Assembly: GCA_963707635.1 (NCBI GenBank)
Contig: OY970173.1
Location: 1,760,001-1,824,000, forward strand
Reading direction: 5' to 3'
Length of the DNA stretch: 64,000 nucleotides
Origin: Candidatus Latescibacterota bacterium
GTDB taxonomy: Bacteria; Krumholzibacteriota; Krumholzibacteriia; WVZY01; JAKEHA01
The notes beneath the pieces were generated by a model that saw only the letters and a program-made list of their open reading frames with translations, made no database searches and had not been told where the DNA came from. The position numbers and the translations under genes are program-made. Shown in pieces: positions 35,445 through 38,531 of the stretch (within the stretch, counting starts at the first letter, position 1; every line of letters begins with the position of its first letter).

Positions 35445-38400
35445 ATGACCACCCGCAACGTGAGGCCGTTCGTCCACCTGCGGGTGCTCTCGTCGTACAG
35501 CCTGGGACTCGGCCTCTCCACTCCCTACGAGATCTGCCAGCACGCGCGCCGCGTGGGCTTCGACTCCGTGGCACTCACCGACGTCAGCGGCACGTACGGC
35601 TTCGTCGAGTTCCATCGCGCGGCGCGGGAAGCCGGCATCAAGCCGATCTACGGCGTGCTGGTGTTCCTCGACTGGCGCAACCCGCCCGAGCGCGACGACA
35701 CCCCCCACTGGCTCACACTCCTCGCGCTGGACCGTGCCGGCCTTCGCCACGTGAGCGCGGCGGCGAGCATCTCCGCGATCCGTCGCGAGCGGGGCGACGG
35801 CCTCTTCGTCGCCGACCTGGAGGGAATCACCGACGGCGTGGTGGCGATCGCCGGCGCGGCGCCGCGGCCGGATCACCCCTCGCCGCGCCACCTGTTCGCG
35901 CCGCTGGTCGAGATGTTCCACGACCGCCTCTTCGTCGAGTCGCGGGCCGGCCTGGCCGGCGACCACGCCGCGGCACAGGAACGCGTGCTCGCCGACGCGA
36001 GCGTGCTGGGTGTGTCACCGGTGCTGGTGCAGGATGTCCGCTTCGTGGGTCCCGCCAGGCCCCAGCTGGAAGACCTGCTCGCCAGCGCGGACGATCGCGC
36101 CTTCGAGCACCGCGTGTTCGGCGATGCGCGCACCGGTGGTGCGGGTGCCGACGACGGCATGCGTACCGCCGCGGACATGTCGGAATGGTACGAAAGCAAT
36201 GCCGAGGCGTACTCGAACGCCGCCGTGATCGCGGCGCTGGTGCAGCCGGATCTCCTCGACGCGCTGGAGGAGAACCCCTCTGCTGCACCGGCGGGGTCGC
36301 TGGCCCCGGCGCCGGACGCACGCATCACGCTGCGCATGCGTGTGGACGCGGCCTTCGCGCGCGCGGCTGCCGAGATGGACGTGCCCGGCCGCGCGGCGCT
36401 ACGGGGCATTCTGGACCGGGAGCTGGACGCGCTCGCGCGCACCGGCCTGGAGTCCGCCTTCCTCAAGTTCGAAGCGATCGCGCGCCGCGCGCGCGACGCC
36501 GGCATCGCGCTGGGACCCGCGAGCGGCCTCGCGTTCCAGTCGAAGTGCGCGTACCTGCTCGGCCTCACCTCCTTCGATCCCTACGCGGTGGACGAAGGGT
36601 TCCACCCCGCCTTCGTCGACGCGGTCGGCGACGGGTGCGTGCTCGACGTGCAAGTCGCACCCGACGACCGCCCCCGGCTGCTCGCGGTATTGAACCGTGC
36701 CTTCGACGACGCGAGTGTGGGGTACGTGCCCACCGTGGAGCACATCACCGCCGCGCGGGCGCTTCGGATCGTGGCGAAGCGGCTCGGCGTCTCCGCGTCC
36801 GAGTACGAAGACGCCGCGCGAGTGGCGTCGCGCCACCAGGGCGTGTCGCTGCGCGAACTGGCCGAAGAGAACCGCACCATCGGAATCATGTACCGCCAGA
36901 GCGCCGCGTTTCGCGAGCTGGTCTCGCACGCGGCGTCAATTGAAGGATTGCCGTTCGGGTTCGCGCGCACCAAGCGCACGCTGGTGGTATCGCCGCGCCC
37001 GCTGCGCGATTTCCTCGGCTATACCGTGAGCCCCGACACCGGCGAGCACTTCGTGCAATCGACGCGCGACTCGTTTCCGACCGGCGCGGTGAGCCGCATC
37101 GACGTGTCGACTCTGCATGCGCTGGCGGTCCTGGGGAGCAGCGCCGCGGGGTGGGACGGCGACAGGACCCGCGGGAGTGGCTACGAGCTGATCGAAGCCG
37201 ACGACCTCGACGGGATCTACCTGCTCGAGGGAGCGCCTCGGCGGCTCGCGCGCGCCTTCGGAATCCAGGCATTCGACGATCTCGTGCTGTTCGTCGCCCT
37301 CATGCGGGATCGCACCAGCAGCCTGTCGCTGGGGGATCGACTGGTCGCATTTCGCGGCGAGCCCCTGACCACGCCCGCAGAGGCGACCGTTGGGAACGTC
37401 CTGGCAACGACGAACGGGTGGCTTCTGTTCAAAGACCAGGTGCGGGATGTGGTCGCGCGGCTCACCGGTCTTGCCAGCGATGAAGCCGCGCGCCTCGCGC
37501 ACCGGTTTCGGGATCATTCGCCGGGGAACCTCGCTGCGCTGCGGCGCGAGTTCCTTTCGCTCACCGTGGAGCAGTCGGTTTCGTTCGAGGACGCGACGGC
37601 ATGGTTCGGCCGCCTGGTGCGATACGCGCCGCAGGTGATGGATCGCCAGCGCGTCATCGCGGAGTGCCTGATCACCGACCGATGCCTGGCCATGAAAGCA
37701 GCGCACCCGCTTGAGTTCATGGCCCGGGTGCTCGACCACGCCGCCGACGAGGAACGGCGGGCGCGCTACCGCGAAGCCCTCGAGCGGGGCCGGCGGTGGC
37801 TGCCTCCCGACCTGCGCAAGAGTGGCCGCGGGTTCCGGGTGGAGGGGAAGGGGATCCGGGCGCCACTGTGGACGATCGACGGAGTCACCCGCGACGTGTC
37901 GGATCGGATCCTCCGGGCGCGTGGACTAGCCGGTATCTCGGCTCCAGATGAGTTGTTGATACAAACGGTTAGAGAGTATGGAGTAAGTAACACTTCAATC
38001 GAAGCGCTGGTGGCGGCCGGCGTGGTTCGGTCCGGCACCGGCCTCGAGGTCACACCCGAACCGGCGACCCGGGGCGCCAGCCACGGGGGGACGGCGCCGG
38101 CGCAGCTCGGAATGTCGCTCGAGGCGGAACCGGAGCCGGCCGCTTTGGCGCCCGCCCACAAAGAAGGAAACTCCGGCCAGGCGTTCCGCGTACTCCCCAC
38201 AGTGCTGGAGTTCTATCCCCACCCGAATGCGACCCCGGTGGAGCTTGTGGGTCGCATCCGGAATCTCCGCGAGTTCAGGTCCGCCGCTGGCAAGCCGATC
38301 GGCTTCTTCGAGCTGTTCGACGCCAGCGGATCGGTGCGGGTGTTCGCACCCTGGGACCACGTCGTTCGAGCGGGTGAACCGCTCCGCGACGGGAGTCGCG

Positions 38401-38531
38401 CGGTCGTGCGAGGGAAAGTGCGGCTGCGCGACGGCAGGAAGGTGTGCGACGCGCTCGAAGTCGTGCCGACCGAAGAAGGGATGGGACATGGAGAAGCTTC
38501 CCCTGACAACCCGGCAACGGGAGATTCTTGA
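35445..38531 (+). CDS. DNA polymerase III alpha (DnaE) homolog with degenerate active site
   Basis: PHP start FVHLRV.S.YS...ALTD...GIKPIYG, YLLGLTSFDP, SIEGLP, C-terminal OB fold. The PDxDxD and GRGS motifs are not conserved. Confidence 0.85.
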   Translation: MTTRNVRPFVHLRVLSSYSLGLGLSTPYEICQHARRVGFDSVALTDVSGTYGFVEFHRAAREAGIKPIYGVLVFLDWRNPPERDDTPHWLTLLALDRAGLRHVSAAASISAIRRERGDGLFVADLEGITDGVVAIAGAAPRPDHPSPRHLFAPLVEMFHDRLFVESRAGLAGDHAAAQERVLADASVLGVSPVLVQDVRFVGPARPQLEDLLASADDRAFEHRVFGDARTGGAGADDGMRTAADMSEWYESNAEAYSNAAVIAALVQPDLLDALEENPSAAPAGSLAPAPDARITLRMRVDAAFARAAAEMDVPGRAALRGILDRELDALARTGLESAFLKFEAIARRARDAGIALGPASGLAFQSKCAYLLGLTSFDPYAVDEGFHPAFVDAVGDGCVLDVQVAPDDRPRLLAVLNRAFDDASVGYVPTVEHITAARALRIVAKRLGVSASEYEDAARVASRHQGVSLRELAEENRTIGIMYRQSAAFRELVSHAASIEGLPFGFARTKRTLVVSPRPLRDFLGYTVSPDTGEHFVQSTRDSFPTGAVSRIDVSTLHALAVLGSSAAGWDGDRTRGSGYELIEADDLDGIYLLEGAPRRLARAFGIQAFDDLVLFVALMRDRTSSLSLGDRLVAFRGEPLTTPAEATVGNVLATTNGWLLFKDQVRDVVARLTGLASDEAARLAHRFRDHSPGNLAALRREFLSLTVEQSVSFEDATAWFGRLVRYAPQVMDRQRVIAECLITDRCLAMKAAHPLEFMARVLDHAADEERRARYREALERGRRWLPPDLRKSGRGFRVEGKGIRAPLWTIDGVTRDVSDRILRARGLAGISAPDELLIQTVREYGVSNTSIEALVAAGVVRSGTGLEVTPEPATRGASHGGTAPAQLGMSLEAEPEPAALAPAHKEGNSGQAFRVLPTVLEFYPHPNATPVELVGRIRNLREFRSAAGKPIGFFELFDASGSVRVFAPWDHVVRAGEPLRDGSRAVVRGKVRLRDGRKVCDALEVVPTEEGMGHGEASPDNPATGDS

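Follow-up and report, generated by a model that had tools for sequence, protein, structure and literature searches.

The 64,000-nucleotide (nt) window analyzed here, the whole stretch from 1,760,001 to 1,824,000 of contig OY970173.1 in the Candidatus Latescibacterota assembly GCA_963707635.1, carries a gene for a homolog of DnaE, the DNA polymerase III (Pol III) alpha subunit, that has lost its catalytic motifs. Sequence comparisons indicate that this gene, termed pseudo-dnaE, belongs to a real, conserved pseudo-polymerase lineage, with orthologs in six of the nine families of Ca. Krumholzibacteria (catalog of 67). It is under strong purifying selection, strongest in the palm, thumb, and fingers, and is not decaying. 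From the sequence, we infer that pseudo-DnaE lacks polymerase activity and binds the beta clamp and primed DNA. An earlier note on the gene had proposed a C-family pseudo-enzyme with a clamp-binding-like motif, a proposal supported by the loss of residues, the kept fold, purifying selection, and the near-canonical motif of relatives.

A DnaE fold without its active site

The reading frame has no internal stops over 1028 amino acids (aa). Its product scores above cut-off with Pfam PF02811, PF07733, PF17657, and PF14579, the PHP-Pol3-HhH2 core, and matches the PHP, DNA_pol3_alpha, finger, HHH_6, and OB profiles in DnaE order. In the list below, f1 to f9 are the nine families of Ca. Krumholzibacteria, f1 being that of this genome, and family rows refer to an order-level alignment of 77 partly redundant rows (62 database proteins and 15 loci).

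35445..38531, + strand: pseudo-dnaE gene, 1028 aa, in the order PHP, palm/thumb/fingers, HhH2, clamp motif, OB
35475..36251, + strand: PHP domain, predicted inactive, 1/9 metal ligands (D197) left
36513..36542, + strand: GPASGLAFQS in place of GPGRGSAAGS, from alignments; Q365 and S366 invariant in the order-level family
36639..36653, + strand: V399-x-D401-x-Q403 at E. coli alpha D401/D403/D405, from HMMER pairwise and multiple alignments
36969..36980, + strand: TKRT in place of HAAG/HAGG, from alignments; R511 invariant in 77/77 family rows
37095..37103, + strand: R551-I-D553 at the K553/D555 positions, invariant in f1/f2, lost in f4, f5, f8, and f9
37800..38033, + strand: tandem helix-hairpin-helix (HHH_6), from Pfam
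38103..38120, + strand: QLGMSL, hexamer-type clamp-binding-like motif, residues 887-892, in a disordered linker between HhH2 and OB
38175..38483, + strand: OB fold, Pfam residues 932-1007, structure 911-1013; kept in f1 and part of f2

At the aspartate cluster, V399 (36639-36641) aligns with E. coli alpha D401 and pseudo-DnaE D401 (36645-36647) with D403, while the third position is also gone, Q403 aligning with D405; D553 (37101-37103) aligns with D555. The register is gap-free from anchor F386 to anchor R409. The earlier note had read the first catalytic Asp as Val, with the D403 and D555 equivalents kept, and both HMMER and the multiple alignments agree; the loss of D405 extends its tally. 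Its replacement of GPGRGS by GPASG (GPASGL with the next residue) and of HAGG by TKRT can likewise be read in the sequence and the alignments. The nucleotide-pocket features RGS, R390, R396, HAGG, and FxxSH are not kept; E. coli alpha numbers other than D401, D403, D405, and D555 serve as labels. At the PHP ligand positions, where loss had also been claimed, pseudo-DnaE reads RLLVLWADR versus HHDHEHCDH in the DnaE1 of the same genome, with eight of nine ligands replaced. D396 of VGDG, suggested as a possible substitute catalytic Asp, is rejected, as its column is unconserved (A18, E11, D10, S9, and W9 of 77).

An AlphaFold model built from 66 homologs has a mean predicted local distance difference test score of 84.6. 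In the superposition that the earlier note had called for, it matches E. coli alpha (2HNH) with a Z score of 36.1 and a root-mean-square deviation of 6.4 Å over 830 residues, and Foldseek also matched it. This fold, the profile order, and the loss of D401, RGS, and HAGG bear out the description as a Pol III alpha homolog without catalytic motifs. Pseudo-DnaE is ~25% identical to the genome's own DnaE1 and misses all curated DnaE cut-offs widely, the best such profile giving 207 bits against a cut-off of 1002 and the DnaE2-type PRK05672 giving 114 against 939; PF00817 (Y-family IMS) gives no match. No C-terminal tau-binding domain is seen in the sequence or the predicted structure, and the chain stops ~15 disordered residues past the OB fold, within an overlap with the downstream lexA. 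Databases label these proteins ordinary Pol III alpha.

Distribution, ancestry, and selection

A profile search across 171 phylum genomes, in which near-full-length pseudo-DnaE matches score at least 872 bits and presumed DnaE1 matches at most 776, finds the former in 62 genomes: 11/20 in f1, 8/10 in f2, 4/5 in f4, 31/36 in f5, 7/7 in f8, and 1/1 in f9 (tallied by hand over listed rows; several further f1 copies are cut by contig ends). No near-full-length match appears in f3 (71 genomes), f6 (12), or f7 (9). Carrier genomes include sizes of 1.6-2.6 Mb. Wider searches return active enzymes or the same family: of 144 new proteins from 1.84 billion representatives, 125 have the D/D/D triad and the other 19 are family members or fragments, and later searches yield 68/68 D/D/D proteins and then 92 D/D/D plus 28 family-type proteins. 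ESM Atlas matches are DnaE clusters only; the rank-3 cluster there is a 959-aa "hypothetical" DnaE-like protein with 55 members, most commonly from Ca. Fermentibacterota.

The D/D/D triad is present in 60/60 control DnaE1/DnaE2 rows versus 0/67 orthologs. In the 77 order-level rows, the residues seen at D401 include V34, I31, and E7, the D405 position is Q in 75, and the D555 position is D in 77. Across the lineage, an acid (D or E) occupies the D403 position in 67/67 orthologs, with seven f2 proteins reading E/E/D at the triad positions. In other orders, the same locus also holds a triad-less DnaE: f4 keeps GPGRG and has His at D555, while f5/f8/f9 have lost both, with V, G, A, Y, or S at D555, so that three subclades lost the active site by different routes. 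Chemistry is therefore not what has been conserved. Columns invariant in 46/46 active DnaEs are seldom kept, the R and S of RGS surviving in 4/67 and 8/67 orthologs, R390 in 4/67, H511 in 0/67, and H760 in 5/67; examples from f5/f8 keep 5/9 PHP ligands. New invariant residues (Q365, Q403, R511, F536, and P545) line the old active site in f1/f2. Lineage-wide, T50 (60/67), R199 (64/67), and E432 (60/67) are shared, none being among the three commonest residues at these columns in the 46 active rows, and these three derived residues support a single origin of the triad-less lineage.

The earlier note had also called for a phylogeny. In two quick IQ-TREE trees, unrooted, without bootstrap, and open to long-branch attraction, all triad-less rows fall on one side of a branch, with approximate likelihood ratio (SH-aLRT) values of 98 and 99, apart from DnaE1, DnaE2, and other active rows, and in neither does the family group with DnaE2. 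An approximately unbiased (AU) test on 12 genome-derived rows without P0162 is not decisive (p 0.066). The f4 subclade is the least diverged and scores nearer DnaE1 than DnaE2. P0162 is a singleton metagenome protein of 1180 aa, triad-less, with a QLTLDL motif, an OB-like region, and a long C-terminal extension; it groups with the pseudo-DnaE family, has R199 and E432, and is perhaps of another lineage.

Ratios of nonsynonymous to synonymous substitution (dN/dS) were calculated by the Nei-Gojobori method with a custom script, with two close metagenomic homologs as the main comparison. Against these, the overall dN/dS is 0.134 and 0.154, falling to 0.058/0.048 in the palm-thumb and 0.066/0.068 in the fingers; eight further ortholog pairs give 0.08-0.25. 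Genomes without an adjacent lexA show dN/dS of 0.08-0.16 for pseudo-dnaE. Conservation of the C-terminal tail is accounted for by its overlap with the lexA frame.

The clamp-binding-like motif and the LexA neighbor

The clamp motif of DnaE is described as lying between HhH2 and the OB fold (PMC3919608), as QLGMSL does here, and the earlier identification of QLGMSL as clamp-motif-like is upheld by its sequence, this position, and near-canonical versions in relatives. A Q-motif of this type arises by chance in 0.15% of 20,000 linker shuffles, and although the linker evolves at a dN/dS of 0.53 and 0.89, QLGM-x-L persists within it. In f5/f8/f9, a Q[LIMF][SDG][LFIM][FLM] motif such as QLSLF is the protein C terminus in 34/38 proteins; a QLELPF-like motif is found in 15/15 f2/f4 proteins, and in seven f2 proteins the chain ends directly past it. 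Among 56 of the 62 closest homologs that could be parsed, 34 have the hexamer and 7 the pentamer, giving a Q-motif in 41, while 9 have only xxDLF and 6 have none. By these counts, the clamp motif of this genus appears real, though the weakest in the lineage. The cognate DnaN retains invariant G173-H174-R175, P241, Y243, V246, and M364-P365, which are presumably residues of the clamp pocket.

Across orthologs, the sequence-defined constant core is PHP-polymerase-HhH2-clamp motif. The OB fold to which the earlier note drew attention is present here by Pfam and structure, but its weight was overstated: it cannot be the key retained function, as it is absent from f4, f5, f8, f9, and 7/11 f2 members.

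The source genome, a single contig of 3.2 Mb, also encodes an intact DnaE1 (9/9 PHP ligands), DinB, RecA, and DnaN, together with a DnaE2 in a lexA-imuA-imuB-dnaE2 cassette elsewhere, in which ImuB is a separate gene. The surroundings of pseudo-dnaE are as follows.

34600..34628, + strand: sigma-70-like promoter TTGACA-17-TAGAGT, the only one found in 34400-39600, upstream of tRNA-Lys
34643..34718, + strand: tRNA-Lys(TTT), conserved upstream locus marker
34860..35423, + strand: WrbA-like flavodoxin gene between tRNA-Lys and pseudo-dnaE, below curated WrbA cut-offs
38488..39123, + strand: lexA, 211 aa; 44-nt overlap with the end of pseudo-dnaE; second lexA of the genome
39284..39359, + strand: tRNA-Glu(TTC), conserved downstream locus marker

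The WrbA-like gene is not found at the equivalent place in the relatives' loci compared. No partner gene besides lexA travels with pseudo-dnaE. A tRNA-Glu lies within 1.5 kb downstream in 57/67 ortholog loci, and Rfam at eight loci gives tRNAs only. Elsewhere in the window, overlapping same-strand open reading frame (ORF) pairs at 42522-43909 and 47815-49619 read as frameshift-broken single genes, possibly through assembly indels.

The overlapping lexA and a LexA-box-like promoter element in relatives were both missed by the earlier note. The downstream LexA passes TIGR00498 (153 bits versus a cut-off of 111; LexA DNA-binding and S24 domains). It keeps the Ala-Gly site and Lys168 but has Cys131 (38878-38880) at the nucleophile position, in place of a Ser-Lys dyad. 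Cys is found at this position in 15/16 f1 rows, while f2, f4, and f5 keep Ser, and one further f1 LexA lacks both the cleavage-site and nucleophile motifs. In f1 LexA the DNA-binding domain is highly conserved, Lys is changed to Arg in three, and the Ala-Gly sites are eroding; f1 LexA is possibly a non-cleavable repressor. A literature search for LexA S119C gave nothing.

lexA lies downstream of pseudo-dnaE in 27/67 loci (f1 12/14, f2 3/11, f4 4/4, f5 8/31, f8 0/6, and f9 0/1). All 15 genomes of f2, f4, and f5 with an intact adjacent LexA have a TTGnnn-17-TAnnnT promoter before pseudo-dnaE; the third f2 case was picked up independently, by searching whole genomes for the pattern. Between the -35 and -10 boxes, in a single register, sits CTAWAC-N4-GTWTAG in f5, YATAC-N4-GTATG in f2, or a half-site in the four f4 genomes. 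The CTAWAC-N4-GTWTAG-like element resembles the LexA boxes reported for Firmicutes, Cyanobacteria, and delta-proteobacteria (PMC2248561). A matrix built on the same 15 loci that it scored, and hence circular, reaches a score of at least 10 at 11/15 training loci, 1/31 lexA-less loci, 0/13 f1 loci, and 0/29 recA promoters; with each family left out in turn, f5 is recovered at 7/8 loci (p 0.015 or less). In a single f5 genus, loci with an adjacent lexA have an intact box, and those without it have one that is intact, eroded, or gone. The box is not found at 29 recA promoters of the order and at 5 from f4/f5, other exact matches genome-wide lie mostly inside ORFs, and genome-wide pattern searches find no other SOS genes behind it. 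An exact-pattern search of 23 genomes yields no conserved site for f1 LexA.

These patterns suggest that, ancestrally, pseudo-dnaE and lexA made up a small operon repressed by LexA and inducible by damage. Damage induction would thus apply to the ancestor and several families, but is not supported for this copy, because the box is missing in f1 and LexA has its Ser changed to Cys; LexA control in f1 looks relaxed, and the tRNA-Lys promoter would drive expression.

Further observations concern related regulatory loci. Upstream of the imu-cassette lexA (G000:C1 ~1851640-1851670, L130), an AGAC-AATT-GTCT palindrome in a promoter-like spacer is a candidate operator of the second LexA. Four f4 loci (L053, L054, L055, and L059) share a conserved leader of ~150 nt from promoter to start codon, with no Rfam match in the three scanned. 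Loci L096-L099, L103, and L104 (f2, f5, and f7) hold a further active D/D/D DnaE paralog clade, distinct from imu-type DnaE2, with lexA adjacent in 3/6. The recA leader (G000:C1 ~2417380-2417480, minus strand, L183; also L173-L201) has a GC hairpin with a GGCTGG or GGCCGG loop, whose complement lies 29-41 nt downstream in 20/29 genomes; both sides covary (CCAGCC/CCGGCC), a possible conserved pseudoknot. L183 and L198 give no Rfam match.

Proposed role and comparison with known systems

The lost catalytic residues, the clamp-like motif, and the predicted LexA promoter in relatives together point to a likely non-synthesizing, clamp-bound placeholder. We tentatively favor a non-extending decoy alpha that would sit on beta clamps left behind at stalled primer ends or gaps, cover the junction, gate other polymerases, and spare active forks. 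Pseudo-DnaE would bind the abandoned clamps through its motif, and cover the primer-template junction without extending it. The 3' end would thereby be protected, and the entry of DnaE1, DinB, or DnaE2 controlled, until repair takes place. Pol III at the running fork would not be displaced because pseudo-DnaE has no tau-binding domain, and only clamps at stalled ends or gaps would be occupied. The dead E. coli alpha D403E is reported to block replication in premixes and to enter a running fork only when tau-bound (PMC10850973). A bolder form is possible, though we lean against it: natural decoy replicases on the scale of a phylum, each a duplicate of Pol III alpha without catalysis or tau link and, as far as is evident, the only target of a dedicated LexA, would cap clamp-loaded primer ends after damage as a restart checkpoint and anti-mutator. 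If true, the decoy lineage would mirror, in reverse, the lexA-imuA-imuB-dnaE2 mutagenesis cassette.

Several observations weigh against the decoy explanation. The clamp motif is weakest in this very genus, the HhH domain is missing in one subgroup of close homologs, and the net charge of the core, ranging from -25 to +7 without a basic trend, is an uninformative comparison. The promoter matrix is circular, and leaving out a family recovers f2 at 0/3 and f4 at a borderline 1/4 at p 0.05. No LexA box lies upstream at any of 13 f1 loci, this one included, and most f5/f8/f9 and f2 genomes keep pseudo-dnaE without an adjacent lexA, so damage induction is not needed for its retention. Nor do these data tell a brake from a scaffold.

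We consider it rather unlikely that pseudo-DnaE is instead an ImuB-like adaptor, which would ride the clamp and recruit or activate a repair or translesion protein through a remodeled palm or PHP surface, leaving the primer end unblocked. The dead polymerase, clamp motif, and lexA cassette follow the logic described for ImuB (PMC3919608), and both the residues newly invariant at the old site in f1/f2 and the lineage-wide T50, R199, and E432 are in its favor. However, only lexA travels with pseudo-dnaE, no additional interaction domain is seen, and imu-type DnaE2 is found in 0/44 f5/f8/f9 genomes searched (39/44 of which have pseudo-dnaE) and in 21/71 f3 genomes, which lack it. This distribution indicates that pseudo-dnaE is independent of the imu cassette, and it contradicts a dedicated DnaE2 partner, which was rejected.

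A clamp sink or turnover factor that titrates or marks beta through the motif, with primer-end binding a minor matter, appears improbable. The minimal conserved form does stop at the clamp motif, which is nearer consensus than in many of the active DnaEs surveyed (PMC3919608), but five residues need no 900-residue fold with a palm dN/dS near 0.05, and some close homologs keep the core after losing the motif.

Residual, non-canonical activity, a weak nucleotidyl transfer or nuclease reaction by the remaining acids, is quite improbable. The copy studied here carries Val in place of D401, lacks RGS, and keeps a single PHP ligand of nine; D555 is replaced in f4 and f5/f8/f9, and no acidic constellation is common to the subclades, D396 being unconserved. 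Set against this are the acid at D403 in every ortholog, the E/E/D proteins of f2, the 5/9 PHP ligands of f5/f8 examples, and the precedent of archaeal PolB2, which was predicted to be inactive and is reported to be active (PMC8764526).

It is highly improbable that pseudo-DnaE directly regulates the LexA encoded beside it, adjusting LexA cleavage or DNA binding in response to clamp-loaded DNA, even though the two genes overlap in this genome and are neighbors in four families. E. coli alpha is reported to bind the LexA homolog UmuD and inhibit its cleavage, but barely to affect that of LexA (PMC3384344), and purifying selection persists without an adjacent lexA. A decaying duplicate or assembly artifact, which fast divergence from DnaE1 and the domain losses of subclades might suggest, is refuted by the long reading frames kept open across 67 genomes from six families and a dN/dS of 0.08-0.25 in ten pairs.

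The 2014 survey of the C family describes the three catalytic aspartates as absolutely conserved, and an intact active-site region was required for inclusion (PMC3919608); a 2026 survey, in its C-family section and discussion, lists no C-family group that is dead as a polymerase and mentions neither Krumholzibacteria nor Latescibacteria (PMC12926913). Both, as described, were built on complete genomes. No description of a triad-less DnaE family was found in the literature searched, from which subscription papers were largely missing and which did not cover the survey supplements with DnaEX lists. A full-length dead DnaE inherited through six families and tied to the clamp and LexA hints at a branch of the bacterial damage response not described before. 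It offers a natural test of the non-catalytic roles of alpha, namely, primer-end occupancy, clamp gating, and polymerase switching, and shows that database annotation passes dead DnaEs as ordinary Pol III alpha.

Among known systems, DnaE1 (2HNH, Taq 2HPI, and M. tuberculosis 7PU7) shares the PHP-Pol3-HhH2-clamp motif-OB order and, for 2HNH, a whole-core match, whereas pseudo-DnaE lacks D401/D405, RGS, R390/R396, HAGG, and the tau-binding domain and coexists with an intact DnaE1. DnaE2 (ImuC), like the unassigned DnaEX sequences, is likewise an extra, non-essential-looking DnaE with no C-terminal domain, a degenerate PHP site, and a lexA link, but DnaE2 keeps the Asp triad, lies with imuA-imuB, and groups apart. 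The C-terminal module of eukaryotic Pol2 (Pol epsilon) is said to be an inactivated polymerase fold kept for a non-catalytic role in replication (PMC6265327); unlike the stand-alone bacterial C-family pseudo-DnaE, it is of the B family and fused to an active polymerase. ImuB is described as a polymerase homolog that has lost catalysis, carries a clamp motif, and is encoded in a lexA-linked cassette (PMC3919608, PMC12926913), but pseudo-DnaE is C-family rather than Y-family, its cassette has neither imuA nor an active polymerase, and its distribution is independent of imu-type DnaE2. The closest mechanistic model is the engineered E. coli alpha D403E, reported as dead, dominant-negative in premixes, and in need of tau at forks (PMC10850973), although this is a point mutant made in the laboratory, with every domain in place, whereas pseudo-DnaE forms a naturally occurring lineage that lacks the tau-binding domain. 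Non-canonical PolX, in which a PHP domain is linked to a Pol-beta-like palm, is likewise reported to have lost catalysis of polymerization (PMC12926913); its PHP exonuclease is active, while in pseudo-DnaE the PHP site is lost as well (HHDHEH[C/H]DH 1/9). Taken together, these comparisons suggest that pseudo-DnaE may work like ImuB or the Pol2 module, yet it fails the defining features of DnaE1, DnaE2, ImuB, and exonuclease-type PolX.

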